NCBI GenBank assembly: GCA_963629885.1
Contig: CAVGKO010000001.1
Span: forward strand, 10,773 to 56,001
Length of the DNA stretch: 45,229 nucleotides
Direction of reading: 5' to 3'
Source: Anaerobutyricum sp.
Lineage (GTDB): Bacteria > Bacteroidota > Bacteroidia > Bacteroidales > Tannerellaceae
Each line of letters begins with the position of its first letter. Position 1 is the stretch's first letter. Both the position numbers and the translations under genes were made by a program. Below are positions 1 to 20,700 of the stretch, one piece after another. Under the pieces are notes generated by a model, which searched no databases, was not told where the DNA came from, and saw only the letters and a list, made by a program, of their open reading frames with translations.

Positions 1-864
1 GAACACCCAGAGTTCAAATGGACGTGTGCAGGGTGGAGTGATATTGACAAGTTTGCTTGTCAGATGCACAACCTCGTGTTCCCGCAGTTTGCCAACAAAG
101 CTCTTGGTGACATCACAAAGATAGATTGGAACGAGGTGAAGAAATCTTTGCAAGGCCGCGAGGTAGACCTCTTCACATACTCATCGCCCTGTCAGGATAT
201 CAGTCAAGCTGGCAAGCAGATGGGATTGGAGGAAGGCTCGGGAACCCGAAGCGCACTTCTTTGGCGAGTTGCCGATGCTGTGCAAGTGCTGAAACCTAAG
301 TATCTGTTACAGGAGAATGTGGCAGCACTGGTAAGCAAAAAGTTCATGCCTGACTTTCGAAAATGGTTAGACCGACTGGAAGAACTGGGATATGTAAACC
401 GATGGACACGACTCAATGCAAAGAACTACGGAGTGCCACAGAACCGTGACCGAGTATTTTGTCTCTCCATGCGCAAAGATGTAGCATTCGACTATCAGTT
501 CCCTGAACCCATTACCCTGAAGCGCAAGTTGGCCGATGTGTTGGAGGAAGAAGTTGACGAACGCTACTTCCTCAAGGATGATGCCGTGGAGAGATTCCTC
601 AAGGCAAACGAAAAGGACCCGGTAGTGTATATGCAGTTCCCTCTTGCTCCCACCCATGAGAATGCAATGTTCCTCAAGACGTGGCTTCACCGCATCTGTG
701 CCTCGTATGACCTATGGACTGCCGAAGACCACACATATCTCGTGAAGAACATCGAGGATTCCCGTCAAGACCTTATGACCGACTACGGCAAGTTTATGGT
801 TGACCACACAATACTGGGGCAGGAGTTCCTCGAAGAGTTCACCGCTAATATGGAAAGGAACTGA
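1..864 (+). CDS. C5-cytosine DNA methyltransferase catalytic core, 5'-truncated by the window edge
   Basis: Frame 1 is open from base 1 (EHPEFKWTCAGWSDIDKFACQMH). Motifs: GDITKID, catalytic motif IV DLFTYSSPCQDIS, motif VI ENV, motif VIII NAKNYGVPQNRDRVF. No TRD and no motifs IX/X after motif VIII. Confidence 0.93.
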   Translation, partial: EHPEFKWTCAGWSDIDKFACQMHNLVFPQFANKALGDITKIDWNEVKKSLQGREVDLFTYSSPCQDISQAGKQMGLEEGSGTRSALLWRVADAVQVLKPKYLLQENVAALVSKKFMPDFRKWLDRLEELGYVNRWTRLNAKNYGVPQNRDRVFCLSMRKDVAFDYQFPEPITLKRKLADVLEEEVDERYFLKDDAVERFLKANEKDPVVYMQFPLAPTHENAMFLKTWLHRICASYDLWTAEDHTYLVKNIEDSRQDLMTDYGKFMVDHTILGQEFLEEFTANMERN

Positions 865-867
865 CGG

Positions 868-1054
868 ATGGAATTCAATCTAACCAGGGTGGCATCTGCC
901 ATAGCCCTCAGTAGGGGGGGGGCAGATGCGCCCAGTAAATGTGACAATAGAGGAATGCTCGGCCACTATCACGACGAGATACGAAGGAGTGTGTATAACC
1001 TCTATTCTTACGCTGGGACATTTCCCGAGGACAACAGTACTAATAGAATTATGA
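868..1054 (+). CDS. Stand-alone TRD-like peptide 1, phase-variable (G9 at 914-922, currently OFF; G8 = ON)
   Basis: With G8 it reads MEFNLTRVASAIALSRGGQMRPVNVTIEECSATITTRYEGVCITSILTLGHFPRTTVLIEL*. The stop overlaps the next ATG (1051). Confidence 0.75.
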
Positions 1055-1200
1055 AAATTCACATCCCGATATTCGCCCAAGTTCTCTTTCTCGGTTCGCT
1101 ACAAGCGCACTGCGCGAAACGATCAATTAGGGGGGGGGACTGCTCTACACTCGGCACCACTGACCTCGGACTTCCTAAAATACTGATAGAATATGCTTAA
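1051..1200 (+). CDS. Stand-alone TRD-like peptide 2 (G9 at 1130-1138, currently in frame, ON)
   Basis: MKIHIPIFAQVLFLGSLQAHCAKRSIRGGDCSTLGTTDLGLPKILIEYA*. Has a TL motif and shares the PKILIEY end with peptide 4. Confidence 0.72.
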   Translation: MKIHIPIFAQVLFLGSLQAHCAKRSIRGGDCSTLGTTDLGLPKILIEYA

Positions 1201-1352
1201 TTATAATGCAAGACTGGAGCGGATGTTCGCGAAGGGCTTTCGTCCCGACCACGCTCTATGGATAGACACATACAACCGCCGATATGGTGGTCTTCACCAT
1301 ACTGGCAGGAGTAAGTTTTAGGAACCATTATTATATAGCTGTGGAATTATGA
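1193..1352 (+). pseudogene. Stand-alone TRD-like peptide 3, frameshifted near 1286
   Basis: MLNYNARLERMFAKGFRPDHALWIDTYNRRY, then a frame change to VVFTILAGVSFRNHYYIAVEL*. That stop overlaps ATG 1349. The unshifted frame stops at 1319-1321. Confidence 0.62.
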
Positions 1353-1500
1353 ATAGCCACGTCCGTCCCATCGTCATGGGCAAGTATTCGCCCTCGCAGA
1401 ACGGTATCATCGTCTCCCCCCTCGGCATAGCCCAGTGCATTGCTGGGGGGGGCGAGGACACGACACCACAAAACCGAAAATATTGATAGAATATGATTAA
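1349..1500 (+). CDS. Stand-alone TRD-like peptide 4, phase-variable (G8 at 1445-1452, OFF; G9 = ON)
   Basis: With G9 it reads MNSHVRPIVMGKYSPSQNGIIVSPLGIAQCIAGGGRGHDTTKPKILIEYD*. The current frame stops at 1484-1486. Confidence 0.78.
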
Positions 1501-1656
1501 CCGCCGACCTCTGAATATCCCCTCCTCCCCCCCCCAAAAAAAAATACGATATGCCCCACCATCACGGCTCACTACTACAAAGACGGATTGCGAAACTTCT
1601 TGCAAGGCACGAAATCGCACTTCGCGGCTCCTGCCATACTAAAAGAATATGACTGA
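1493..1656 (+). CDS. Stand-alone TRD-like peptide 5, phase-variable (C9 1527-1535 plus A9 1536-1544, OFF; +1 nt = ON)
   Basis: With +1 nt it reads MINRRPLNIPSSPPxKKNTICPTITAHYYKDGLRNFLQGTKSHFAAPAILKEYD*. The current frame stops at 1640-1642. Confidence 0.78.
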
Positions 1657-1662
1657 TAATTT

Positions 1663-1846
1663 ATGCTTAGGATAAATGCAATGTCAATAATGGTCACCAA
1701 GACTGATAATGATTGCGTATTTCGAGATATGCAAGCCAACGGACTAAAGACTCCTCGCTCTTTGAGTAGAGAATGTTTTACACTTACTTCGGCAATGGGA
1801 CTTGGGGGGGGGTATGACTCCAATAATAGTGAAAGTATATGAGTAA
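1663..1846 (+). CDS. Stand-alone TRD-like peptide 6, phase-variable (G9 at 1804-1812, OFF; G8 = ON)
   Basis: With G8 it reads MLRINAMSIMVTKTDNDCVFRDMQANGLKTPRSLSRECFTLTSAMGLGGGMTPIIVKVYE*. The stop region overlaps ATG 1839. Confidence 0.75.
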
Positions 1847-2788: not shown

Positions 2789-3778
2789 ATGAAAAGTCCA
2801 TTTGCAGATTGCGATGCGATAAAGCATAGTGAGCAGAGAACTGTGGTATACCGCAACGAGCAGTATGAATACACTTTTGTATGCTATAAGTGTCCAAAGA
2901 CAGGCGAGACCTTCACAACGAACGAACTTGATGCTGTCAATATGATTCAAGTAAAGAATCAATACAGATGTCGTCACAATATCCCCTACATCAACGAAAT
3001 ACGGAAAATGCGGAAATCCTATGGACTATCCGCAGCTAAAATGTCTTTCATTTTAGGTTGGGGAGAGAATCAATTCAGGCTATACGAAAACGGCGAGATG
3101 CCAAGTGTAAACAACGGGCTGCAACTTCGAGCCATCCAAAATGTGGATGTATTTTGCAATTATGTCAATTTGTCGAACATTTCCTTACAAGAGAAAAAGA
3201 CAATCGTTGAACGTGCCAAAAACAGTTTACTTGCACAAGAGCAGACAGGTAAAGCACGTTATGACATTGAACGTATATTTGGAACTGATATCAACGCGAA
3301 GTATGAAGGATATACCAATAAATCCTTGCAAAAGCTGAAAAACGTAATGCTCTATTTCATTAATAATTCGAACAGATTGTTCCAAACGAGCATGAACAAG
3401 TTACTCTTCTACACGGATTTTCTTCTCTATCGGGAATGCGGGCATGGTTTAACCGGGCTATCGTACATAGCGCAGAATTTCGGTCCTGTCCCACTAAATT
3501 GGACAAATGTTTTCAGCGCATTCGAGGAAATCAGTACTGAAATCATTAACTGTGGAAATGGAAACGAAGGCTATATCCTAACATCTGATATGCCTTATGA
3601 TATCAATGAATTCAGCGCACAAGAAATGGAAATATTAAATCAAGTCCGCGACCAATTCATTCAACTTAGCCCCACAAAAATTTCGGAAATAAGCCACAAA
3701 GAAAAGGCATGGACTGACAATATTCGAACACACGGTTTGATTGACTACTCCTACGCGTTCCAAATGACTACAATCTGA
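2789..3778 (+). CDS. MqsA-like antitoxin: Zn-ribbon-like + XRE HTH + C-terminal Panacea (DUF4065/SocA) domain
   Basis: YKCPKTGETF; IRKMRKSYGLSAAKMSFILGWGENQFRLYENGEMP; MNKLLFYTDF...GLSYIAQNFGPVP...ISEISHKEKAW. Confidence 0.85.
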   Translation: MKSPFADCDAIKHSEQRTVVYRNEQYEYTFVCYKCPKTGETFTTNELDAVNMIQVKNQYRCRHNIPYINEIRKMRKSYGLSAAKMSFILGWGENQFRLYENGEMPSVNNGLQLRAIQNVDVFCNYVNLSNISLQEKKTIVERAKNSLLAQEQTGKARYDIERIFGTDINAKYEGYTNKSLQKLKNVMLYFINNSNRLFQTSMNKLLFYTDFLLYRECGHGLTGLSYIAQNFGPVPLNWTNVFSAFEEISTEIINCGNGNEGYILTSDMPYDINEFSAQEMEILNQVRDQFIQLSPTKISEISHKEKAWTDNIRTHGLIDYSYAFQMTTI

Positions 3779-5711: not shown

Positions 5712-8700
5712 ATGGACGAAAAGCAGAAACCACTATATGAGTTATACACGGAACTCCCTGAGTCCGGTTATCAAGTAGCCGAAACATATGAAGAATTCGA
5801 AAAGGCATTCACGACTGACCCTGATGCCGAGAAAAATCGTCACACCCTATTCGAAGAACTGAAAGATAAGGGATTAGGACCTGAAAACTACGAAACGTTT
5901 TATAGCACTCTATTCCAACCGAAAGATGCGAAAACTTCGGTTGCTATAGACCCGAACACTACTAAGCCAAGTACTCAGTCCCAAACCAAGCAAGTCGACC
6001 AAACGGCAACGGGAACGCCAACGAATGTTGCCTCTGGAACTGGTTCTGCGGCAGGAACGACAGATAAAGTTGCTGCGGCAAAGGACGCGAATAAGTCCCA
6101 ATTGGACAGCAGACCGAGTATTACAAGCGTTCTTGACAATGTGGCCAACGATGTCAAGCAAGCTGTAACAACTTCTACTGACCCCCAATTGAATCAATCG
6201 GCGCAATCCGCGTCGATGCAACACGGGCAGTCCCCCACTGTTGTGAACCAACAGGAGAAGTCGCGCGGATACAATGTGTGGAAGACTAAAATCAGCAACG
6301 CCTTTGACGATTATGCTCTGGGCAAGATAGACGATAAACAATTTAAGTCGACCATCGACAATGTTGGCAAGGATATAGAATCCGGAACGGACAACCAAGA
6401 CGAACGTAACGAGTTCAATACGTTTATTAAGGATTTGCAGAAGCGCGCCCAAAACACAAGAAGCACCAAATCTGTACAGGTCAAGGCCGGCTACGAGGCA
6501 TTCCCAAACAATAGTGATTCTGTTGTATGGGATTTCAAACTCAGCCGGAAGCAGCTCCCTCACCAGCAGGACTACGTTCGCACACTCCGCAATATGGTAA
6601 CTGGCGGTCAGTCATTCAATGTTATGTACAATGTGACTGACCCGGAAATCCAAAGAGACTACCAGATTGTGTCCGACCCCAAAGCGGAATCTACATATAA
6701 GCCCAACGACTATATACTTGGCGAGTCGAAAGCACAAAAGGATAAGGATTACCAACTTTACGCAGCGTATCTATACCTAAACGGAGGAGATTTACCCGAT
6801 TGGTTGGACTATACAGCCCAAAACAAAATTAAGGCACTGAGCAAGCAAGAACTGGAAACGAAAGCGAATCAATGGAAATCGCTCGTTGATGGCACACGCA
6901 CGAAGCGAAAATATAAAGGTCTGAATTCTATTGCAGATTATTACGCAAGTCAGAATACATTCTCTACAGGTGAGGCTCGCGCAACATATGGCAACCGCTT
7001 CGCCACGATTGTCCTGCCCAATGGAACGTACCAGACAGTCGACATCCATGGTGTAAAGGGTGACCAAGCCTCAGTTGGCGATGCACGAAAGGCGTTCAAT
7101 GCACGATTCAATAGTACTGAAACTGCTGATGAGTCGGGGAACGGTAATGCTCAAGCCCCTAAGGGCGATACCTACCTGATGCCAACAATCTTCAATGAGG
7201 AACGATACTCGAACTCTTTCCCTGAATGGGATGATTTGGACGATAAGACCAAGGCTCAATTCGACAATAGCGTTTTCAAGTACTGGGACGAGATGAACAA
7301 ACGTCAAGCCATTTCCGTGCCGGTATTCGTGGAGAACGGCAAAAGCGTAGACAAGGCAGAAGACGAGTTCAATGCGAAAAATGCCAAAACTCAATTCGCG
7401 CAACTGACCAAGAGGGAGGAGATTGAATCGCAAATCAAACAGGCGAAGAAACTCCGGAAGCTGCTTGAAACAGCCTTTGAGAACCTACGCCAATCAGCAA
7501 AAGAGGAACGAAATGGCGGTGTGAGTACAATGTTGGGCGATGCAGGACAATTTCGCGTTGCATTCCGCAATATCGACAATTTCATCGAAGCCGGTGAACG
7601 AGCCATCAAAGACCGTCACTATAGTGCGTTCACATCATTTTGGGAGAACCTTTCCGATGCTGGCGGGTGGTCACTGGGACTGACCAATTTGAACGAGGCT
7701 TTGGGACTCAATCACCTTGCCAGTGGCGAAGGGGTTAGCCCCGAAATCGAAAAGGCATTTGGCGGGAAAAAAGGCGTTAAGGAATTCGCAGCTGCTGTGC
7801 AATATTTCGGGCAGAAGGCCGAGCAATGGCGGCAAAAGTTGGGCTATTACGATGAAGCAGGCAAAGCAGGCTTAATTCAGTTTATGGGCACCTCTATGTT
7901 GCCAACCTTTAAGGTCGCAACTCTTGCTGGTAATGCGGCAAAAGGTGTCGTAAAGTTTTTGGGCAAATATGCAGTTAAAGCTCTTGACAAGGGTGTGGCC
8001 GAAACTGCGAGTGCAAGTATACGGGCAGTCTCCCAATCGGCGATAAATCGCTCTCTAAAAACTGCGCTCAAAGAAGGCGGCATGGCAGCTGCTACGCGCT
8101 ATGGCGCAGCCAAATCTTTGAATGTTGGCGTGAACGCCGCTGCTTTAGTTGCCCAAGGCTTTACGGACGGCACTATTCTTAGTGTGCCCGAAGTATTCAC
8201 CAATGTGGCAAATCGTCGCACAGGTAATGCACAAGTCGCTGAAATAACGCGAGAAGGCATCAAATTTGGTGACGAACTATTCGTGCATGACAACCAAAAT
8301 AGCGAAAGAGACGTTATAAAGGAGACTCTCCAACGCGGGCAAGCAGAATGGATGGGTATGCGTTTGGGCGAGATTTTCGGACCGTGGTCACGCTACCTGG
8401 ACCAGCATATGATGAGCTGGGGAAAAACCGCGTATAAAAAGACGTTGGGCAAATTTCTCGATGGTTCGAACCTCGAAAAGACTTTGGGAATGATTGCCAA
8501 GGGAGCCAAGGCAACAGATGTATACAAGTACGTTACCAATCGGCTTGAGCAAGCCGGCATGGGTGGCAGTCTCACATTCTACACGCAGAACAACCTAAGT
8601 CAGTTGATCAATGCTCTGACGGTCGGAGATGTGTCTGTCAGTGAAGCGTTGAGTGGAAAAAAAGGAAATAATATTTCTTGGGCGGATATGACCTGGGGAC

Positions 8701-11700
8701 AAATCCAAAAGGCTTGGGGTGCCGTCATTGACAATGCTATCGTGTGTGGTGTTCACACAACAATCGGAGCAGCCTCATATAAGAAGCAATGCCTTGACCT
8801 GACGCGGTTGCAACGGAAAAACGAGAAGGAATGCACAAGAGTATTGGACGAAGAATATTGGGCGAAGCTGAAGCATGACATCGACCTGTGCGGCGAAACG
8901 TCCGACAAGGCATTAATCGCTTACACCCGTGCTATTAGAGATAATGCGGATTTAAGTGGTGAAGCGAAGCAGGCCATAATCAACTATGCCTTAACGCTTA
9001 AGACTCAGCAAGCACTTAATTATGGTGCGCTCAACAACGGTAAAACCAATGCACTCGACCTGCGATACCAAGATGCTTACGATGCTGGTGCCGATGTGAA
9101 ATCGCCTGACGAGATTTCGAAACTTCAAGAAAATGCCAATAGCGCAAGAGTATCACTCGCCAAGCTGCTTGGATGTAGCACCGACGAAGTCGATTCCAAA
9201 GTGAAAGGATTCGGCGAAGGCTATCGCGAAATCTATGAGGCGGCGACCAAAGACATTGCGGACGAGCAGAAAAAGAAAGAAGTCCAGAATGTCCTTGACG
9301 TATATTTCACCAATTTGGCTGCGGTAGAAGGTGCGCACGACGCTCTCATTGTAGACCATGAGCAGAAACTGGAACAGAATAAATCTTACGTTGAGCAGAA
9401 CAGCAACAAAGAGTCAGGAACCACCATCCAAGCTACGGATAAGGATGGTAGGATATGGTATGTTATCAGTGGTGACCCGCGTAGAACCAACTCATCAGAT
9501 ATGCTAATTGTACGCGATGGTGTAACGGGTGAGATTGGACACGGCTCTGTAAGTGAATTCGAATTTGCCTCAGAACAGAACACGCAGGACCTTGTCAATG
9601 AAGGCAATAAATCTATAAGCGAAGAATACCTTTCTAAGCGCAATGCCATTTTGAAAGGCGAGACGTTGCCCGAAAGAGGTGATAAAGTTTCTGTGCTTGA
9701 TGCCAACGGTAAGGTTATAGAAGTCACGGTGGAAGGCATAGAGCAGTCCGAAACTGACGGAACGCCAACGGGTATTACTGTCAGAACTGAAGATGGGCAA
9801 ATGTACAATTTTACCACAGATGAATATCGCAACGCGGTAAAAGGAGTGGCAGAACGAGAAACCGCAACGTATATCGGAAATGATAATTTCGCGCTCAATC
9901 GTGCAATTAGTTCTTCTCAGGTTGCCACGGGTACGGAATTCGTGCATGACGGCAAGCGGTATACATTCGACCACATCGACGACAATGGTAATTGGGTAGC
10001 GCGACCGGTTGGTCAAGAAGGTCACTCGGTTGAATTCTCAGAGGAGGAAGTCAGAACTGGCATTGACGATTTACTCGCCGGTAAAGTTCAAGGCTCAGAA
10101 CAATCTGAAGCGAACAACGATGAAGAAATAAAAGTCGGCACAGAGTTCACTTTCGAAGATGGCACGCCCGGAGTTGTGACGGGAATAAGAGACGACGGAA
10201 CATTTTTTATTGCCTCGAAAGATAGCCCTGTTTCGTTTGACGCGTCCCGCGAGAGGGTTACTGAATTAATAGCGAAAAGTCATAATGCAGAACGAGCAAC
10301 AGACGCGAGTGGTGAAAGTCCCAAAACTCAGGACACCACCAAAACCGCTGCTGACGACAAAAAGGAACAAACTGCTGCCGACATCTCAGTGGGCGACAAA
10401 ATCACCATCAATGGCCACATCTATAAGGTAGAAGGCATTGACGGGAATAGGTGTGCCATTGAAAAAGACGGGCGTAGATACATTTGGCGAGTTTCAGATA
10501 TAGAAAAAGGCATTGAAGACGGACGTGTGAAGATAAATGCCGAAACTGAGTCTACTGACGCGGCAGAGAAATCTTCAGAAACTGACATCGCTCCTGCCGA
10601 GCGAATCGAAGACGAAAGTGCCATCGGACTTTCCGAAGCTAATAAGATACCTGAAGGTGAGGCAACCTCATCTGACCAGGAGACTGGTAAACTGGAAACG
10701 CCGCATACCGACGTGGAAGAATCTTCTGCGGAGGTAAAGCCACAGCCCCAGGAAGGACAGGCTATCGTCACGGATGAAAACCCAAAGGAAACTCCTACCA
10801 CAGAAGCACCACTCGACCACCATGCTCCTGCGTTGAATCGTATCCCCAAAGATGAGAAAGGAGAACCTATGTTTGAAAAAGCTCCCTTGGATCAGTCTTA
10901 CGATGCCCTATTGGAGCAGACTGGTGGAAGCGCGGAGACTACAAGCGAAGTCATCAAGGAAATGGTTGAGGACAAGCGCAAGGCTCTCGCTGATGCCGAG
11001 GCGGAAGAGATTCCCCACGCAAATGGTGCAATGGCTAAGATTGCCGCGCGAAAGGCTCACGATGAGAAGGTGAAGCAGGCGCGTCAGGAACTTGAGTATT
11101 GGGAGGACTTGGCGCGTGTTCCCGAAGAACGGGCAAGGGCTGAAGAGGAACCGCAGCCTATTGGCAAAGGTTTCTTCGGCAATATCTATGACCAATTTAA
11201 GGGTAAGGTAAAGGCTGCTTTAGACTTTCTTTTAAAGCATAGAGAAGGTGATTTGCTTGGCGTGTTCCATCGCGATGACCTTGGGGACATTGACTTGGTT
11301 TGGGGCAATAGAGCGGAAAACCGAGGGCTTGACCACATTATAGACAAGCACATCGAACGTTACCATGACTTCGCCAATGCGGAAGAAGCCATGAGAATTA
11401 TTGATGACGTTATCAACAATGGACAAGTCAATGAGAAGAAAAGTCGTTGGGATAAGGTCGTTTTGGATAAAGATGGCTATAGCGTAGTCATTCGTAAGAA
11501 TCTCCGTGACGATAAAGGAAACATTATCGAAAATAGTAAGAATTGGGTAGTAACGGCATTTGACAACAACCGAACAGAGAAAGAAAAATCTTCACCCGAT
11601 ATTACCATAGCAACCCCTAATACCGATGAAGGGAGCAGGGCTGTCGCTCCCGGTGAAGATTCTTCTGCCTACAAAGGTACAATAGAACACACTACCGGCA

Positions 11701-14700
11701 AAACATCTTCCACCGAAAAAGCCGAAACAGACAACAAAAACTCCGTTTCAGACCAGATATCGGAGGTATCGACGGGTGTCGACGCAGAGTTTACTGGGTC
11801 GAAGAAAGGGAACGCACGCAAAACGGACGGTGAACCTCACGCCCACCCTGAGCAACCTCTCACAGAGCGCACGCGACAAGCCTGTGAGTCGGTAGCAAAG
11901 TCTTTAGGCATTGATGTGGAATGGGTAGACCATATGCCCGAAAACGGCTCTTATGCCCCCCATGGGAAGAATGGTCGTCCTGTCATCTGCATTGCACGCG
12001 ATGCCGAAAACCCGCTTTCCACTGTGTTCGGTCACGAAGGGACGCACGCAGTACGTTCCATATCGGAAGATGCCTACAAGTCGCTCGTTGATAAGGCACG
12101 CGCCGTGGTGGGCGATGAGGAATGGAACAAGCGTTTCAAAGCCACCAAGGAACTCTACGAAGGCGAGCATCTCACCGATGACCAAATTGCCGAAGAGGTG
12201 GTTGCCGACATCGTGGGCGAGATGATTACCGACCGCGATATGGCTGAGAAACTGGCTTACCGACTTGACCACCCGACTCTTTCTGCCCTGCGCGATGTTG
12301 CACGGAAGATGTGGGAAACGGTGAAGCGTTTCGTTGGCGGTAACAAACTGACTGCCTACGAACAGGCGGTGAAGGACTTTGCGGACACTATTGAGCGCGC
12401 GTTTGCGGACGCGAAGGAAGCATCGGAATCATTGTCGGAATCCACACGGACGGAGATGGCTGAAAATAGTCTTGGCATTTCTGGCGGAGCCGTCATGTCG
12501 GACTATGCGCGAGGCATCAAGAATCGCACTGGGTATCAGACTCCCAACGAAAGAGGGGAATTCGCTGACGATTCTGAAAAGCATTCCAAGCGCACGTTAC
12601 CCTTCACGATAGTTTATTACAAGTCTCTTGCTAACGCACGCCAAAGCACGGCAAATGCTCTTGAGAACTGGTCTATGCGTAGAGCCATCCAAGACGAAGT
12701 GAATGAAATCATTGACGGGTTTGAAGACAAGATGGAAGGACGCGACAAAACATCACTTGGCAATTCTCCCGTCCGCAAACAGGCCGATATTTACGGGTTC
12801 TCTTTTGATGTGGATACAAGCTGCCCCCGTTCATTTGTGAACCTTGCTTGCGTAGAGGAAGCAGAACGTAGATTGGGAAGACCTCTCACGCTGAAGGAAT
12901 CCGTGCAACTGAATGAGCATCTTCGTGCATATGGTCTTCAGATTCCATGTGTTTACTGCTATGTGGAAAACAAGCGTCAGGCACTCAAGGACTCTATCCA
13001 TACCTTTATGGCGGCACGCAATGGTGTCTATAATGCGAAGTCGGAACGTGAAAGACGAAAATTGATGTATGGTCAGCGGAAGCCCACGGCTAAAGACCCA
13101 AGCACACTCACCAAGGCTGCGCAGACACGTCTTGCTGAATGGAGTCAGCGAAAAGATGCCGGAGACGACTATAATCCGTCTTTACCCGAACTCTATTCGC
13201 AGTACAACAACGCGCGCAGTTATGTTCTCCTCATGCTCGGCTCGCTCAACGAGAGAGGTGACATCAGCGAGACAAATAGTGCAAATGCTTTGGCTAAAGT
13301 CGTAACAGAGAGGCTCGCCCAATATGCCGACCTGCATGACGCGGACAAATCATTTGTAAAAGGCGAAATCACATCCATTTGCGAGGATTGGATTTACGAC
13401 AAGGTTCACAAAGAGGAACATACACATTTCAGCGAGGACGCAGCCTACGACTGTGATACCCGCAACATTTTCCGTCCCTTGAGCCTTTGGAACGAGGCAA
13501 CGAAGTATGCCAAGTCATCCTCAAGCGCGAAGAAAGTCAGCAAGTATATGCCTTACACCGATGAGCTGCGTTATCTCACCCCGGAACAGATTGACGCACT
13601 CAATTCCATTGGCGGTTTGCGCTTCCATTCCAACAACGATTTCCGCATTGACTATGTAGAGGACTATTTCCAAGTGCTTGCACATATGTCAGCCATCGGA
13701 CTTATGGGACAAGCCTATACAAAGAGTCCCGACTTTGTCCGAATTTTCGGTGGAACGGGTCTACGTGTAAATATGTCCATCGCTGCCTATGGAGGCGAGA
13801 ACGGCAAACCGATCATCATGAACGAGCAGGAAGGTTTCAACTGGAAAGTGGCGCAGGAACTCCGCGAAAAGTATCCGGATGCCGGGGTAATGATGATGGT
13901 CACCAACGATGCCCAGCTTGAATACGCCCTCAACTGTCCTTGGATTGACATGGTCATTCCGTTCCATGCATCGGGACTCCCCCGTGCGGTATGGTATAAT
14001 ATGCGCCAGTGGCAGAACTATACTGCAAAACAGAACGAGAAGCTCATTAATGCAGCAGACAAGAAGAAAGCACTAAAGGCCAAAGGGATTGACTTTAAGA
14101 AGGAGACGGAAGGTATGTCGAAAGATAAGGCATCGGCATGGCTGAATGACACCTACGACAAGACTTTCGGTACAAAGCACGTTTATGGCATAAAGGAAGG
14201 CAAACGAGTGCTTGTCTGTCCGCACTTCGAACCCGGTGATAAAGTTATTGAGAACGAGACCGGCAGATATGAGATTCCTGGCCATCACAATGACCTTCAG
14301 ACGTATCTGCAACTTTGTGAGGAATATGGCGTTAAACCGCGTTTTGCCGGAATAAAGGTGCGCGATGCCAATGGCAAACTGATAGACGTGACCGAGCACC
14401 CGAATTATATGAAGCTCATCAAGGAGACAGCACGCACCGAAATGGAACAGCACCCTGTCGAATTCAACATTGATCAGGCTGACGAACGTATGCCATTGAT
14501 TACTGAAGACAACGCGCACATTATCTTCGGTAATAACTACGACAAAGCAGAGATTGGCAAACATATGTCTCCTATGCAGTATGCCATGACGCAGATGTTT
14601 GACTTCGCGAAGAAAGGCGGTTACACGGATGTGAAGGACTACAAAACATTGTCCGAATCCACCGGCTATGGTGACATAGTTGGAGACTTCATTGACAACG

Positions 14701-17700
14701 TGGTCAAGAAGAACCGTCCCATCAATTACCTTACCGATGATGCCCACCTTATGGCAAGCATCACCAATAAGGCTCTGACTGAGGCCTATGGCGGCAGAAT
14801 GCCTTACGAGGGCAAACGTAAAGCTGATGTGCGCCACTCCCGTCGCAGCAAAGTCACCCCCGAAGAGCGCGCCATCCGCGACGAACTTGCCAACACCATG
14901 AAGAACGCGGGCATTGATGTGTCCGTGGATGATGAAGAGGGGCAGAGGGTGATGGACGATGCAAGGGAAATGGACGATGTAAGGTTGAGTGCTAAACGAA
15001 AAAGAGCACTTGAAACCGCGTACGTTTCTCAAAGCGAGGAACATCAACCAACTGTCGTTTCAAGTGCCGATGGTGCAAAAGTACTAAAAGATATTGATAT
15101 TATCGTTTCAAAATACGAAAAACATTCAAACCAAACTAAAACTTTCATCGGTGATGTAGCAACTGCACTTGGCGCAACCCGTGATGGAAGCAAATCCGAA
15201 TACGCTACATTTGAGACAAAAAACGGCAAAATTGTCACCATCCGCTTGGCTGACCACAATGCTACTGTTTCCAACTTTGACAACCGTGGAGAGTTGGACG
15301 GCATCAGTATTGTTATCACCCCCAAAACGAACGAGGGCATTACCAACGATGGCGATGCTCATGTCGTGGAGCATTTCTACGATTCCATTAAGTTGCGCAG
15401 AGCAGACGGCAAACCTTTGGCTGAAATCGTCAAGTCCATTAAACAATCACTCTATAGCGGTGAATTCAAGGACACGACAGGACTTGCCGAACGGCAGGAG
15501 GTTAATGCTGATACTATCCGTGAGCAACGCGTCTACCACGGCAGCGGCGCGGACTTCGACCACTTCGACCATTCGCACATGGGCGAGGGCGAAGGAGCGC
15601 AAGTGTATGGTTGGGGAACGTATGTAACCGAGGTAGAAGGCATTGGCAGAACGTATGCTCGCGCAAGCAACCAGTCTACTCTACGGAAAGAGAAACTCAA
15701 AAGCGACATCAGTAGAGCAAAAGAGAGATTGCCGTTTATGAAAGGTGAATACAAAACTGCTCTGGAGAAAGAAATTGCTCAGAAGGAAGAAGAACTGAGC
15801 AAGATGTCCGATGCTAATCATCACCTTTATACTGTCGAAATCCCCGATGACAACGGGAACAACTACCTTGACTGGACTAAAGAGTATTCCGAAGATGATG
15901 TGTATTCCATCATTGAAAGGCTACTTGACGTTGCCGCGACCAAAGCTAAAGAAGGTAATTTAGATGAACGCGAAAAACTTAGAGGTGCAGCCGACCGTAT
16001 AGCCGAATGGGTAGATGGTGATTTGAAAAACGATTTCTTCGACAAATTAACAGGCGAGAACATCTACCGAAAGGTCGCGGGTAGTTTTGAAGATTACTCT
16101 GAAGAGGAAGCATCTAAGTTGCTGTCCGAAGCTGGTTTTGCTGGCATCAAATACCCTGCCGAGAACATGAGTGGTGGCCGTGCCGATGGTGCAAAGGACT
16201 ACGTCATCTTCAACGAAGCCGATGCTCAAATTACCGACCATATTCGTTTCTTCCGCACCCCCAACGGCGAAGCGTATGGATTCACCAAGGGCGGCAAGAT
16301 ATACATCGACCCGCGCATCGCCAAAGCCGACACGCCCATCCATGAATATACCCACCTTTGGGCAACCGCCCTGCGCCAAGGGAACCCGAAAGAGTGGGCG
16401 AACGTGGTGAACCTAATGAAGGGCGAGAAGGAACTTTGGGACGATGTGAAGAAACGCTACCCCGAACTCAAGGCCGATGACGAGATTGCCGATGAAGTAC
16501 TTGCCCATTATTCGGGCAAGCGCGGTGCAGAACGTCTCCGTAAGGAGCAACGCAAGATTGCCGAAGGCGAAGGCTCTATCTTTGAGAAGGCGCGCGCCAT
16601 CCGTGCGTTGGAGAAGGTGAAGCAAGCCCTTGATAAGTTCTGGAAAGGTGTGGCAGACTTCCTGCACATCCACTACACAAGTGCCGAGGAAGTTGCCGAC
16701 CGCGTGATGAGTGACTTGCTGAACGGGGTGAACCCGACAAAGAACACAATCCGTGAGCAACGCGTCTACCACGGCAGCCAAGCGGACTTTGATTCGAAGG
16801 TGTTGAACAAATTGGAAGGTCGTGGAACATTGCAGTCCGAAGAGACTGACGTGACCGACCTACCGAAGGATATGGCATACCGTGAAACTGACATCAATGA
16901 ATTGGCCGACATACTTAAAAGCGGTGGTATGCGACGTATGCCCAATGGCAAAGTCGTAGAGCATACACCAAAACCGGGACGCATCTCCTTAAGACCGAAA
17001 CTGGGCGGCAATTCCCATGGTGGAAAAGGTTTTGCAAAGGGCGCACCGTGGAGTTCATTGGGTGGAACACTGTCTGGTGGTTCTGCAACAAAGGTTTTAA
17101 TAGGAGTTCCGGGAAAGAGCATAGAATGGCAAACAGGTCATCACGGCAGCTACACCGAAGCAAAACCATTCGAAGACATCAAACACGGCGAGCCGTTGTT
17201 CCTTAAGTTTGATGAGAACGGGAATGTTCCCGTTAGTGTGTCTAATATGCGCATATGGGTTGTCGACAAGGGCGGCAACTACCATGAGTTTATTCAAGAC
17301 TCAAACTCCGATGCCAAGATAACCGACGGCAACGGCGGTGAGAAACGGACTGACGAGCAGGACGATAATTTGCTTTACCGCACGAGCGATGAACTCAACT
17401 CCGAATATGGTGACCGATGGATATCTGAGCAAACCAACGAGGACGGACGGCACACAACCCAAGTAAAGAACACTATCAACTCCTACAAGAAATTTGGAGA
17501 ATGGGTAAAGGCCGATTCCAACGGAAGAGATGTTTCCATCCTTGACGCAAGTAGCGGCCTTGGTCTTGGCACAGACTGGATGCGCGAGAACGGAATGAAT
17601 GTGGATGACGTGGAGCCATATCCCTCCGAGGATAGAACGAAACCTACATTCACAAGCTACGATGACATTGACAAAAGGTACGACTACATTGTGAGCAATG

Positions 17701-20700
17701 CAGTACTCAATGTTATCCCCGATGACTGGCGCGCCAACGTCCTGCACAACATGGCAGACAAACTGAAGGATGGCGGTAAGATGGTCATTAACGTTAGAGG
17801 TGCAAACTCCATTGCCAAACAAGGCAAAGAAGGCGTGACACGCATTACGCTTGATGACCCATCCGAAATTCTTGTACTCCGTCCTGACGGAAGCATCAAG
17901 GCTTATCAGAAAGGCTTTACAAAAGAGGAACTGAAAGACTGGTGCAAGAAGGAATTGGGCGATGGATATTCCGTTGAAATTGCAACGAACAAGAATGCGG
18001 GCGGCAGCTACGACACCGCAGTGGTGGTCACTAAAAATAACGAAAGTGGCACTATAGGTGTCACTTCCGAGGCTGGTCATCCACGCGGGAGTGCGCAGAC
18101 CGTACCCAATTCGTATGCAAAGTTAGACAATGGTTTGGAAATAACAAAAGGATTGGATAATATTGTCAGTCAGATTACACAAAACGGCAAGATGGGCGCA
18201 CACGAATTCCTTTACAATCTATCAAGCTCATTTGGTTTCAAGGGCAAGAACCTCAAAGAATCCTATTATAAGGACTTGAGTGAGAATATAGGTATTCGCA
18301 TTGCAAATCATTATGCTAACGCTGATAATTTTGCGAAGAAAGGCTCAAACGAAGATAACTACGGCATAGTAATCAAACTCTCTCCCAACAAATTCAAAGA
18401 CAAAGATGGTGTGAATTACCTTGAGTATGTGTACTTCCCAGACAAACTCAGTGGTGAACGTCAAACTGAAATTGTCAACGGACTCAAAACTTTCTTGCAG
18501 ACTGGTGACTACGCCGCACTACCTCATCCCGACAAGGTAAATGCATCGGGTAGGTTTAAGGAAGAATTGCTATTGCAGAACCCCGAATCTCCCGAAGCCA
18601 AAACCGCAGCCGTCAACACCCTCTCCAAGGAGATGAATCTGCAAGGCAACGTGACCGTCCTCACCTCAACCGAGGGACTCACCGGAAAGAAAGCCAGCGC
18701 GCCTGGATGGTGCGACCCGAAAACAGGACACATCACCATCGTCCTGCCCAACAATGCCGATGCAGCTGACGTGCAGAAGACTGTCTTCCATGAAGCCGTA
18801 GGACACCACGGACTCCGCAGACTGGTGGGTGATGGCAACTTCAACGACTTCCTCGACAACGTGTACAACAATGCCGAGCAAGGAATCACGCAAACCATTG
18901 ACCAACTTGCCAAAGAGAAGCATCAGGGAGACAGACGCAAAGCCACCGAGGAATATATGTCCACCCTTGCCGAGGACGAATCTTTCCTCAATGCCGGAAA
19001 CCGCAGTCTGTTCCAGAAGGTGAAGCAGCTCTTCACCGACCTTCTCCGTAAGGCGGGCATCAACCTTGGCACGGAACTCACCGACAACGACCTTCGCTAC
19101 ATTCTTTGGAAGAGCTACAAGAACCTCACTGACAACGGCAACCCTGACGTGTTCGCCCAGGCAGAGGACATTGCCAAACAAAATCATCTCAAGGTGGGTG
19201 ACTATGCCAAGCACGAAACCGCTGCCGAACGTGAGATTAACAATGCCGACAACGAGCGTGGACTTCTCTTCCGCACTCCGTCCGCCCCAAACAACGACCC
19301 GATGAACGTGGCATCGTCCTACTATAACCAAAAGGCTGAGACACTTGGCACGAAGACTCTTTTCGGTGGGCTTTGGGCAGCAATGCGCCATCCCAAGGAG
19401 AACGGGCACAAGTTCCTCAACGAGGCATCGGAATCATTCTTCGACTACTCACGTTCCGTCAAGGCATTGCAGGACGGCATAGCGGAAGCCCTTGGCCGTC
19501 CCATCCGCGATGACGAGGACGCATGGCGCACGATGAACTCGCTCCCCGCAGTGAACCAAGAGCAGCTCAACGCAGTGCAGAACAACCTTGTGGCTCCCCT
19601 TGGCGAACATATCGGCAACATCATCAAGAACACAAAGGACAAGCCGGGCGGTGCGCGCACGATGGACGATGTGGAAATCTACCTCAACTGCAAGCACGGT
19701 CTTGAGCGCAACAAAGCCATGGCCGAGCGCAATGCCGAAGAGGTGATGGACAAAGCCAAGAAAAACTTGGCGAACATGATGGATAAGGCTTATGCTGAGA
19801 AACTGAGGATAATGGCAAGCGGTGACCAGCAAGCAATCAGCGACTACAACAAGAAGGTTTCCCACATCAAATCCCGAATGGGGCAGGGCAAACGCATTGA
19901 CGATAGTGAATACGCCAAAGTTGCAGCCGACCAATTAGGCACGTTCGCCGACCGCAAAGACTTACTTATAGTAATAGGACAAACTGCTGATGCCTACATC
20001 GATGCATTGCGCGACCAATATATCGAAGCGCAATGCAAAGACTATTCCGGTCTGACCGAAATATTCCATCCCGACTATAAGGAACAGCGCGCACAAGGTG
20101 TCACCTACGATGTCAATAATCTTGAAGACGAAGCACGGAACCTTATTGCTCAGTTTGAGGGTGCAGTTGGGAAAGCCGACATCGATGAACTATGGAAATT
20201 GGTCGGCAACCTCACCGACTTTGCACTCCGCAAGAGTTATGTGAGCGGCAATATCTCTCTTCAGCAGTATCAGGACACCAAAGCAATGTATGCCAACTAT
20301 GTTCCCCTTCGCGGATGGAACTCTAAGAATGCGGACGACGTGTACAACTATGTGGCGGGCAGCAGCGGACTCACCCCGGAGGATTTCCAAAAAGTGATGA
20401 AGAAAGCCTACGGTCGCGAGTCGCGCGCTGGATACATCTTCGGCACGATGATTGACATGGCCACCACCGCAGTGAGTCAAGGCAACCGCAACGTGATGAA
20501 ACAATGCCTTCTCAATCTTGCCGAGCGCAGTCAGACCAATCTACTCCGTGCGGGAGAAGTGGTATATGAGCAAAGTTCAAACGGCACCCTCACCTCTGTT
20601 CTTCCCAAGCTCCACGACGGAATGACCGAGCAGGAGATTGCCGATGCCTATTCCGACTGGCAGGACGATGTGAAGAACGGACTTGCCAACGGCACATACA

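Follow-up and report, generated by a model that had tools for sequence, protein, structure and literature searches.

Multispecific cytosine-5 (C5) DNA methyltransferases are encoded by temperate Bacillus phages (the SPR, phi3T and rho11s type). They carry several short target-recognition domains (TRDs), each of which is thought to provide one specificity, and protect against many restriction systems (PMC12707154). These TRDs lie in tandem in one polypeptide, between motifs VIII and IX, and no switching by repeat tracts is described for them. In permuted C5 methyltransferases of type H (M.BssHII, M.Alw26I, M2.Eco31I, M.Esp3I and M2.BsaI), motifs IX and X come ahead of motifs I to VIII; in the 27 permuted REBASE sequences given, the site of permutation is in the variable region (PMC5944983). 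C5 methyltransferase activity can also arise when the enzyme is made as separate chains, with the break inside or close to the variable region, as in M.AquI and M.EcoHK31I and in laboratory fragments of M.SssI, M.HhaI and M.BspRI (PMC3404938). The small subunit of M.AquI and M.EcoHK31I carries motifs IX and X, or IX alone, and each enzyme has one specificity. In the Type I and Type III phasevarions of bacteria, slipped-strand changes of homopolymers within coding sequence turn methylation ON or OFF, while the HsdS protein of Type I systems is a separate specificity subunit that docks on the catalytic methylase and is exchangeable within its family (PMC12707154).

The locus described here lies at the start of a 45,229-nt stretch of DNA (the window), and we read it as probably a DNA cytosine-5 methyltransferase with which a phage counters restriction, assembled from interchangeable pieces and with homopolymer tracts as module switches. 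Like the enzymes of the SPR type, it is phage-encoded and has several short TRD-like units for one catalytic core, but every unit is a separate mini-ORF, the order of the core is permuted and a homopolymer tract is present in many of the units. Motif order is that of the type H enzymes, but the present chain opens shortly ahead of motif IX and has no TRD. Compared with M.AquI and M.EcoHK31I, the small chains would be TRD only, up to 17 in number, and alternatives for one site on the core. Phasevarions belong to adenine methyltransferases of bacteria and switch either the enzyme as a whole or a single specificity gene, whereas here a phage C5 enzyme would have a separate switch for each of several specificity peptides, and another in the core of some relatives. 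The likeness to HsdS is one of logic only; that protein has about 400 aa and two TRDs, serves an adenine methylase and has no sequence relation to the peptides. Metagenomic PF00145 proteins P0072–P0075 (261–271 aa) offer a further comparison: in P0072 and P0075, several TRD-like units stand in tandem, every one closing with a hydrophobic-E-x tail, ahead of the hairpin and motifs IX and X. In these proteins, however, the TRDs are joined to one another and to motifs IX–X in one chain, and motifs I–VIII are off that chain. Literature searches for arrays of free TRD peptides, or for the present arrangement, found no description.

The catalytic core

Positions 1..864 (forward strand, as are all features below) encode the 3′ two thirds of a circularly permuted C5 DNA methyltransferase catalytic core, assigned by Pfam family PF00145. 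The first-pass annotation of this DNA, made from the sequence alone, had placed a methyltransferase core here; the catalytic identity stands, but the gene is cut by the window edge, begins 439 nt upstream of it and is both permuted and frameshifted by 1 nt, features absent from that annotation. The part within the window contains motifs IV (PCQ), VI (ENV) and VIII (QNRDR) and the proximal variable region, followed by a helical extension of approximately 90 aa that forms the C-terminus, and ends with a TGA stop codon at 862–864. When the upstream sequence is read directly, the full gene has motif IX, then X, then I to VIII in a single chain, a circular permutation in which motifs I, IV, VI, VIII, IX and X are all present. 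PF00145 matches the window part with an E-value of 4e-44 over profile positions 23–227 of 324, and the pieces upstream of the window at positions 269–292 and 297–322. Profile positions 228–268, the TRD zone, have no match in the core, and the TRD that a C5 methyltransferase has in its own chain, flanked by motifs VIII and IX, is missing. An AlphaFold model of the core as a single chain was poor (mean pLDDT 60.8) and was used solely for the helical C-terminus, where pLDDT was 81–94, and for a check of the fold, in which the top matches were M.MpeI, M.HhaI and M.HaeIII. The frameshift is a 1-nt gap relative to the closest relative, L070, and falls within an A5G2 run that lies after motif IX and ahead of motif X. 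A short masked run lies just upstream of the window and makes the frame at that point uncheckable.

An intact, uninterrupted core of 432–467 aa with the same order and stop, and without a TRD, is found in 54 of 67 viral relatives; PF00145 matches the core of one such intact relative with an E-value of 2.6e-50. In all 54, a short hairpin opens the chain approximately 17 residues ahead of motif IX. The position of the stop, after the helical extension, is conserved in 57 of the 67, while the core is broken in 10, six of them at one length-polymorphic G7/G8 tract. The TRD-less core that had been proposed from the window is therefore borne out in the relatives, and sequence comparison establishes a permuted catalytic core that has no TRD and ends in a helical extension.

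The same layout, a core that ends without a TRD together with mini-ORFs, is present in all 112 non-redundant related loci (126 before identical arrays were removed; L137, L162 and L163 were excluded as partial). By a looser pattern these loci have 1–17 mini-ORFs each, always encoded beside the core and, in relatives, on both sides of it, a feature that the first-pass annotation did not contain. Many of the related loci are SPAdes contigs with coverage of 20–900x. Among GenBank phages, 1378 records match the core, none with at least 60% identity and none covering 80% of it. Two of these matches that looked split were inspected and set aside, being two adjacent methylase genes in one case and a two-gene methylase in the other, with no peptide array.

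The mini-ORF array in the window

Six modules of 49–61 codons lie 3′ of the core, with tail stops at 1052, 1198, 1350, 1498, 1654 and 1844, and the ATG of every module overlaps or adjoins the preceding stop. The core end at 864, the six modules and the tracts (G9, G9, G8, C9A9 and G9, all within 914–1812) were found as first annotated, as was the statement that only the second module is now in frame. Module 1 (868..1054) is OFF, its start and tail frames being one base apart at a G9 tract (914..922); the start frame at present continues into module 2 (ORF 868–1200, 110 aa), while in a frame test the tail stop is reached at G8 (61 aa). Homologues of this module, in family F12, are ON in relatives. 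Module 2 (1051..1200) is ON, being open at G9 (1130..1138) for 49 aa; its homologue in L070 is ON with G13, and that in L063 is OFF with G8. Module 3 (1193..1352) is OFF and has no homopolymer; since its tract site is degenerate, and no homopolymer change restores the frame, it is locked OFF. It belongs to a family (F4) with 20 ON and 10 OFF members in relatives, in which the site holds G6–G9 tracts or interrupted Gly codons; L070 has G9 at this site.

Module 4 (1349..1500) is a member of the commonest family, F0, and is OFF at a G8 tract (1445..1452) that lies in Gly-Gly-Gly codons after a T-L-like motif. The frame test reaches its tail at G9 (50 aa); this copy needs G9 because its flank differs from that of its relatives. 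Module 5 (1493..1656, family F7) is OFF and has two tracts (1527..1544), C9 at 1527–1535 followed directly by A9 at 1536–1544; either C10 or A10 restores the frame to the tail (54 aa), and homologues without a tract are ON in relatives. Module 6 (1663..1846), which is grouped with family F13 by motif, is OFF at G9 (1804..1812) and reaches its tail at G8 (60 aa). The proposal that a single-base change would restore each OFF module thus holds for modules 1, 4, 5 and 6 but fails for module 3, the tract loss of which had been overlooked.

The tracts are confined to this array. A pattern of eight G has nine matches in the whole window, which are the five tracts; shuffled sequence gives an expected 0.46 matches per window, and none of 100 shuffles reaches nine. 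Elsewhere in the 45 kb, G or C runs of at least 7 nt are limited to a single C7, at 36452. As assembled, the present genome has one of six modules ON, one locked OFF and the core out of frame.

Conservation of the mini-ORFs

A strict module pattern, written by ourselves, identifies 399 modules in 65 of 68 sources, against a background of approximately 0.14 hits per kb per strand; the census excludes tails that lie further away than +2700, together with five tail endings considered false hits, and the ON/OFF state is uncallable in 95 of the 399. Across relatives the mini-ORFs have 33–110 codons and fall into about 46 tail clusters. Each tail consists of a hydrophobic strand and E-Y-D/E, and its stop shares bases with the ATG that follows (ATGAnTAA); this ATG begins 5 nt ahead of the tail stop in 321 of 399 modules. 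Within 12 nt, at least two of the three frames are closed at 384 of 399 junctions, compared with 85 of 897 control positions. Each module ends in a stop, and the TRD-like units are not contiguous in one polypeptide. An alternative genetic code was rejected: the tail stops comprise 235 TAA, 95 TGA and 69 TAG, and long ORFs are intact under table 11. In all eight families tested, pN/pS is 0.12–0.41 in the module's own frame and 0.44–3.1 in the other frames, and sequence comparison thereby shows the mini-ORFs to be conserved as proteins under purifying selection. Together with the arrays at all 112 loci and the alignments described below, this agrees with the earlier proposal of TRDs encoded as separate peptides. 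One family found in relatives departs from the general pattern: it is an acidic peptide of 32–33 aa with the tail but no T-L region, and is ON in all 28 copies.

Tract length and module state

The Gly or Pro codons of many modules contain a pure G (or C) tract, and a homopolymer within the reading frame sets the frame both in the window and in relatives. Among callable modules, 231 of 304 are in frame. OFF modules number 49 among the 65 that have a tract and 24 among the 239 that have none; an allele written with interrupted codons nearly always keeps the frame. Even where the flanks are the same, close relatives differ in tract length. Among groups with identical 25-nt flanks, length varies in 33 of 56 groups for G6–G9 runs, in six of 47 for G5 and in none of 4474 for G2–G4; A7–8 runs are also variable, in three of 17 groups. 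In addition to the tracts in modules, some relatives have the G7/G8 tract inside the core, which the first-pass annotation lacked.

Family F0 (n = 61) illustrates the dependence of state on length. Its Gly triplet is written either in interrupted codons (ON) or as a pure tract of G8 (ON) or G7 (OFF): members without a tract comprise 32 ON, one OFF and 12 uncalled, those with G8 five ON, one OFF and one uncalled, and those with G7 nine OFF. The lone G8 copy that is OFF is that of the window, where the flank sets a different phase. Comparison of relatives hence shows tract length to decide the frame of a module. It also supports the independent homopolymer switches suggested for the window: orthologous tracts differ in length, and state follows length. 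A change of ±1 nt at one homopolymer restores 51 of 73 OFF modules; the 22 that are not restorable, and the OFF modules without a tract, indicate that some decay exists.

Resemblance to TRDs and a model of docking

The T-L/GGG region of the mini-ORF peptides aligns to the part of single-chain C5 methyltransferases that lies between motifs VIII and IX. Among 44 profile hits to a set of 30 single-chain enzymes, the seven best all lie between these motifs, a zone that makes up 36% of protein length. The profile of family F13, to which module 6 is assigned, aligns to residues 282–302 of a 360-aa enzyme, just before motif IX (i-E 4e-4, set of 30 proteins). Direct homology to a TRD is seen in one long family: a 110-aa module of relative L034 is 57% identical over 51 aa to the TRD stretch that is fused to motifs IX–X in P0072 (E 8e-8), in keeping with the similarity to C5 TRDs claimed earlier. 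Of 30 named language-model neighbours, 28 are in the PF00145 set, at a score of 0.92, which is taken as a weak lead. By motif-zone alignment, then, several TRD-like units accompany one catalytic core, as in multispecific enzymes, with six modules in the window and 1–17 in relatives.

Database searches with the peptides returned little. Eleven peptides matched no Pfam family at E-values up to 10, three more module ORFs (two from L070, one from L034) matched none at up to 0.001, and profiles of two peptide families had no hits among sequences of solved structures at up to 10. In 1.84 billion proteins the F0 profile found 67 representatives, all of 33–162 aa, with no full-length methyltransferase among them, so that for most families TRD homology is argued from short motif-level matches and position. 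A word search for longer relatives of the RTEEAK-type peptide found only proteins of 110–144 aa. None of the proteins matched by these two queries (33–162 aa and 110–144 aa, respectively) bears a name.

That free peptides dock onto the core, as had been proposed, was examined in a structure model. A complex of one peptide with the intact core of a relative scored 0.86 in three runs, while the best of three controls scored 0.00; this mark is reached by 116 of 157 solved complexes and two of 215 mismatched pairs. Between runs, at least 91% of contacts recur, and the peptide has a pLDDT of at least 73. Peptide residues 41–50 touch core residues 13–20, and peptide residues 21–34 touch core residues 289–293 (QNR) and 313–369. 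Because solved single-chain C5 methyltransferases exist, this score may reflect likeness to them, and docking is put forward here as a prediction of the structure model.

Proposed mechanism and alternatives

Under the preferred reading, ribosomes would terminate and restart at the stop/ATG overlap (ATGAnTAA) along an operon-like row of mini-ORFs, and each peptide would be a free TRD that completes a small domain, for which the structure model provides support. The C-terminal strand of the peptide is predicted to pair with the N-terminal hairpin of the core, just before motif IX, while its T-L/GGG loop would pack against motif VIII and the helical extension. Only one peptide would occupy a core molecule at a time, giving an infected cell a mix of enzyme specificities. 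Slipped-strand mispairing during replication would flip single modules ON or OFF heritably and, in some relatives, a tract in the core would flip the whole enzyme. A phage population would then carry many methylation patterns, a possible hedge between hosts with Type II systems that cut unmethylated DNA and hosts with methyl-dependent (Type IV) systems that cut 5mC DNA. The first-pass annotation had gone as far as a different methylation motif for each peptide, 2^5 combinations and bet-hedging, all of which are regarded here as putative.

The same architecture could exist with tracts that are not heritable switches. Slippage by RNA polymerase or the ribosome would give a fixed in-frame fraction, making each tract a rheostat, or poly-G consensus errors would conceal modules that are all in frame. 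Tracts of 8–13 nt suffice for transcriptional slippage; those seen here are of that length, the variable A7–8 runs (three of 17 groups) fit this account too, and part of the variation in length from one assembly to another may be of technical origin. State nevertheless follows length in F0 (nine of nine G7 copies OFF, five of six called G8 copies ON), and pure tracts coexist with interrupted alleles, a pattern that mutational switches typically show. General assembly error was rejected, as the same window contains an uninterrupted ORF of 16,950 nt (5649 aa), 17 kb without a frame error. Many loci come from SPAdes contigs at 20–900x. Slippage or artefact is in our judgement improbable. We think slightly less of the idea of a decaying relic, in which an ancestral multi-TRD methyltransferase has broken up and its fragments, along with the core of the present genome, are non-functional. 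Such a history would fit the window, with its frameshifted core, the missing tract of module 3 and an OFF state in five of six modules, and it would fit the 22 of 73 OFF modules in relatives that are not restorable and the 10 of 67 broken cores. It sits poorly with purifying selection in eight of eight families, 231 of 304 callable modules in frame, conserved stop–start junctions and a layout kept in 112 loci; moreover, six of the 10 broken cores break at one length-polymorphic G7/G8 tract. For the present single copy the relic account may hold, and this copy, with its frameshifted core and five of six modules OFF, may be dead.

Very unlikely, in our view, is a role for the peptides outside core specificity, as decoys or inhibitors of host C5 methyltransferases or restriction enzymes, or as regulators of the core. 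The acidic 32–33 aa peptide, in frame in 28 of 28 copies and without a TRD, resembles a plug more than a TRD, and most families have no detectable full-length methyltransferase relatives. Yet the part missing from the core is exactly the part that the peptides resemble, the modelled contacts match those expected of a C5 methyltransferase TRD, and the peptides are always encoded beside the core.

The methyltransferase of exchangeable parts can be taken further, to a reading that we consider evenly balanced between right and wrong: a new class of Type II modification enzyme, in which the core would behave as RNA polymerase does with sigma factors. Up to 17 free specificity micro-subunits (33–110 aa) would be produced by termination–reinitiation, many with their own ON/OFF tract, and some phages would have a master tract in the core. 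The acidic, TRD-less peptide, always ON, would compete for the docking site as a regulator, and the population would sample combinatorial 5mC patterns to pass both defences that require methylation and defences that punish it.

Significance

Gene callers split or drop ORFs of 33–60 codons, so that current phage annotation probably misses a system of this kind. Should the peptides work as specificity subunits, a C5 methyltransferase could obtain its DNA recognition in trans, from a chain of approximately 50 residues; to our knowledge, this would be the smallest natural specificity module of a DNA methylase, and the arrays would be a ready toolkit for programmable 5mC writing. As far as the literature searches show, it would also be the first phage to switch its own methylation pattern piecewise through repeat tracts, which would allow direct tests of how Type II restriction trades off against methyl-dependent restriction.

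Organization of the array

The window opens inside the gene for a C5 DNA methyltransferase, here called the core, whose frame is open from base 1 to a stop at 862–864 (+). Six short open reading frames (modules 1–6) follow on the same strand, at 868–1054, 1051–1200, 1193–1352, 1349–1500, 1493–1656 and 1663–1846; their tail stops lie at 1052, 1198, 1350, 1498, 1654 and 1844, and an ATG overlaps or adjoins each previous stop. Five modules carry a homopolymer tract: G9 in module 1 (914–922) and module 2 (1130–1138), G8 in module 4 (1445–1452), C9 followed directly by A9 in module 5 (1527–1544) and G9 in module 6 (1804–1812). Elsewhere in the 45-kb window the longest G or C run is one C7. An eight-G pattern has nine matches, all inside the five tracts, against 0.46 expected from shuffles, and 0 of 100 shuffles reach nine. 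The tracts and the six modules with their stops, as described in the first-pass annotation, are thus borne out by run search, frame reading and shuffle test.

Module 2 alone is in frame (ON) as assembled, encoding 49 aa at G9, as had been read earlier. The accompanying claim that a single-base change restores the out-of-frame (OFF) modules stands for modules 1, 4, 5 and 6, where a one-base tract change opens ORFs of 61, 50, 54 and 60 aa to the tail stop, but fails for module 3, which has no tract and whose frame is restored by no homopolymer change. At G9, module 1 runs past the 1/2 junction to give a 110-aa ORF (868–1200, +) ending in the module 2 peptide; since the OFF start frame is not closed at this junction, the OFF state can yield a fusion, beyond mere truncation.

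A permuted core without a target-recognition domain

The window is a section of a 56-kb contig (L002) from a 1.8-Mb assembly, and upstream sequence places the core gene start 439 nt before it. The motif order is a short hairpin, IX, X, a linker and I, then, within the window, IV, VI and VIII. The window part matches Pfam PF00145 at profile positions 23–227, and two upstream pieces match at 269–292 and 297–322; positions 228–268, the end of the variable region, find no match in any of these. The sequence thus indicates a circularly permuted core without a target-recognition domain (TRD), and the unmatched positions uphold the earlier proposal of a TRD-less methyltransferase. Past the proximal variable region, the core closes with a C-terminal stretch of approximately 90 residues predicted to be helical (pLDDT 81–94). 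The single-chain model is otherwise poor (mean pLDDT 60.8), and its best fold matches are still M.MpeI, M.HhaI and M.HaeIII.

Aligned with its closest relative, L070, the core is one base short at an A5G2 run (L002 ~10503–10507) that lies between motifs IX and X. A short masked run just upstream of the window, within the core gene, hides the frame at that point. The missing base, which appears to put the core out of frame here, may reflect mutation, faulty assembly or a slippery site, and the window copy of the system may be inactive as assembled.

Conservation and coding status of the modules

Relatives of the core were collected from 67 viral-contig loci, 61 metagenome-contig loci (four titled human gut metagenome) and one genome-collection locus (87% identity). 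Of the 67 viral loci, 57 keep the core frame open to the same stop and 54 have the whole 432–467 aa core uninterrupted; in six of the ten broken cores the break falls at a single G tract within the core. To recognize modules, a self-written pattern required them to end in a hydrophobic tail whose last two residues are Y/F/H and D/E/A/K/R, or else E/V and L/Y, followed by a stop codon with an ATG close by. This pattern, which has a background of ~0.14 matches per kb per strand in the rest of the window, identifies 399 modules in 65 of 68 sources (2–10 per locus, median 149 nt), and a looser version applied to both core flanks finds modules in 112 of 112 non-redundant loci (1–17 per locus). Relatives also have modules directly upstream of the core; none was found there in the window genome. 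The upstream TRD modules of loci L004, L034 and L070, some with G8–G9, include long forms of 102–110 aa, one of which abuts the core start.

The next ATG begins 5 nt before the tail stop (ATGAnTAA) in 321 of the 399 modules and 1 nt before it in 52. Stops close two or three frames within 12 nt of 384 of 399 junctions, versus 85 of 897 control positions inside modules. Overlapping stops and starts combined with closed frames form a signature of translational coupling, which the arrays appear to carry as separate small ORFs; judged from these loci, the array layout is a conserved feature of the family.

Clustering by tails places the modules in ~46 groups. In the eight families tested, pN/pS is 0.12–0.41 in the annotated frame versus 0.44–3.1 in the two other frames. 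Modules 1, 3, 4, 5 and 6 each have in-frame homologues among viral relatives, and the module 2 homologue is in frame in L070. These patterns indicate that the mini-ORFs are real genes. A distinct family of 32–33 aa, seen for example at L027:5003–5101 and in the L063 array, shares the usual tail, but its middle is strongly acidic and it lacks the T-L region. All 28 copies are in frame and none has a tract; the peptide may be a plug or regulator of the putative docking site.

Homopolymer tracts as putative switches

Tracts were defined as G ≥6, C ≥7 or A ≥8, and the state of 95 of the 399 modules could not be called. Among callable modules, 49 of 65 with a tract are OFF, versus 24 of 239 without. 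A change of ±1 nt at one homopolymer turns 51 of the 73 OFF modules into full ORFs; 22 stay closed. In F0, the commonest peptide family, which includes module 4, a Gly triplet is coded either by interrupted codons or by a pure tract. Tract-less copies are ON in 32 cases and OFF in one (12 uncallable); tract copies in relatives are ON at G8 (five, with one more G8 uncallable) and OFF at G7 (nine). In the window copy a different flank shifts the phase, so that G8 leaves it OFF.

Length polymorphism was scored within groups of loci that match exactly over the 25 nt on either side of a run. Lengths differ in none of the 4474 G2–G4 groups, in 6 of 47 G5 groups and in 33 of 56 G6–G9 groups; for other bases they differ in 3 of 17 (A7–8) and 1 of 13 (T6–7). 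Tract lengths are therefore not invariant across homologues; invariance would have counted against the phase variation proposed in the first-pass annotation. The six tracts of the L070 array, a SPAdes contig, are G13, G9, G9, G8, C8 and G7. One clade has a G tract within the core itself, in Val-Gly-Gly codons ~150 nt into the part matching window 1–861, a site where the window carries none. Of 13 loci whose flanks are identical, one has G6, five G7, six G8 and one G9; G7 is in frame and G8 frameshifted. The assembly is unlikely to be faulty in general, since the window also contains an unbroken ORF of 16,950 nt.

Are the peptides target-recognition domains?

Most direct searches were negative: 11 peptides had no match in Pfam, two family profiles had none among sequences of solved structures, the F0 profile recovered from 1.84 billion proteins 67 representatives, all of 33–162 aa and none a full-length enzyme, and the relatives retrieved for another peptide, in a search aimed at longer proteins, were all of 110–144 aa. 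Position, profile matches and homology favour the TRD reading. In PF00145 coordinates, the peptides stop exactly at the point from which the permuted core starts, and precisely that zone is what the core lacks. When family profiles were run on 30 single-chain C5 enzymes from related genomes and two phage records, the seven best of 44 matches all fell between motifs VIII and IX (36% of protein length), as did 24 of the 44 overall; the best aligns the T-L/GGG/strand region of the module 6 family with residues 282–302 of a 360-aa enzyme. A 110-aa module of L034 shares 57% identity over 51 aa with a TRD in P0072, a 271-aa metagenomic PF00145 protein with several tandem TRD-like units, each closed by a hydrophobic-E-x tail, then the hairpin, motif IX and motif X. 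As a weak lead, 28 of the 30 named language-model neighbours of an F0 peptide lie in the PF00145 set (score 0.92). Module 4 may resemble the TRD of M.HhaI. The earlier identification of the peptides as C5 TRDs is thus supported, for one family by direct homology and for the others by position and profile matches. P0072 and P0075 (261–271 aa) combine tandem TRD-like units with motifs IX and X, have no motifs I–VIII, and may represent the small subunit of a further type of split C5 methyltransferase with multiple specificities.

Docking was modelled for one complex, with alignments of the intact L023 core and of the F0 peptide from the same locus as input. Over three runs the score is 0.86, whereas the best of three controls gives 0.00; among solved complexes 116 of 157 attain this mark, as do 2 of 215 mismatched pairs. 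Contacts agree between runs to at least 91%, and the peptide pLDDT is at least 73. Peptide residues 41–50 (tail strand) contact core residues 13–20, the strand just before motif IX, and residues 21–34 contact core residues 289–293 (motif VIII), 313–324, 334–346 and 360–369. The model supports peptide–core binding, as proposed earlier, but the score may reflect likeness to known enzymes, because solved single-chain C5 methyltransferases exist.

Comparison with known systems

According to PMC5944983, natural permuted C5 enzymes have motifs IX–X before I–VIII, with the permutation site always in the variable region, and 'type H' enzymes keep the TRD on the same chain; the present chain, in contrast, begins after the TRD position. 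The other nearest systems are the multispecific Bacillus phage enzymes, with several TRDs arrayed in one polypeptide (PMC12707154), the two-subunit M.AquI and M.EcoHK31I (PMC3404938) and repeat-tract phase-variable methylases (PMC12707154). The present system has traits of all four; for the Bacillus phage, type H and two-subunit enzymes, one defining trait is missing in each case. Full-text literature searches found no description of this arrangement and 50,697 GenBank phage records no annotated example, in line with the first-pass annotation, which knew of none. The combination of putative exchangeable TRD peptides, a TRD-less permuted core and tracts thus appears undescribed in the literature searched.

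Phage context and proposed mechanism

Gene content indicates that the window is phage, with a terminase large subunit (27754–29856) and a portal protein (34587–36569). A VRR-NUC nuclease (Pfam; 1880–2356, +) directly follows the array, and a paralogue lies 8 kb upstream (L002 2437–2847, +). A reading frame at 1839–2060 overlaps the start of the former, with an overlapping stop–start junction as in the modules. A protein encoded between the array and the virion genes (2789–3778, +) joins an MqsA-like N-terminus to a SocA/Panacea antitoxin domain. A T7 gp14-like internal virion protein is encoded near the array, as is a 5649-aa polyvalent protein in one uninterrupted ORF (5712–22661, +; Pfam: PBECR1 nuclease, ART-PolyVal, methyltransferase, LPD38). 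Polyvalent proteins are thought to be injected against host defences. The VRR-NUC beside the array, the second on the contig, and these three proteins are further counter-defence candidates. Upstream of the window, an ORF at L002 7135–7752 (+) contains four tandem copies of a ~19-aa charged unit.

On sequence grounds, the system comprises a permuted TRD-less core, coupled mini-ORFs under selection, and tracts in Gly and Pro codons that set the frame by their length, which differs between relatives. We propose that one peptide would complete the small domain of one core molecule, as the model supports, and that each would confer its own methylation motif. Slippage would switch modules heritably, and the set of expressed peptides would define the 5mC pattern of the phage. 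OFF modules may pay off because methyl-dependent restriction (Type IV) systems attack 5mC DNA.
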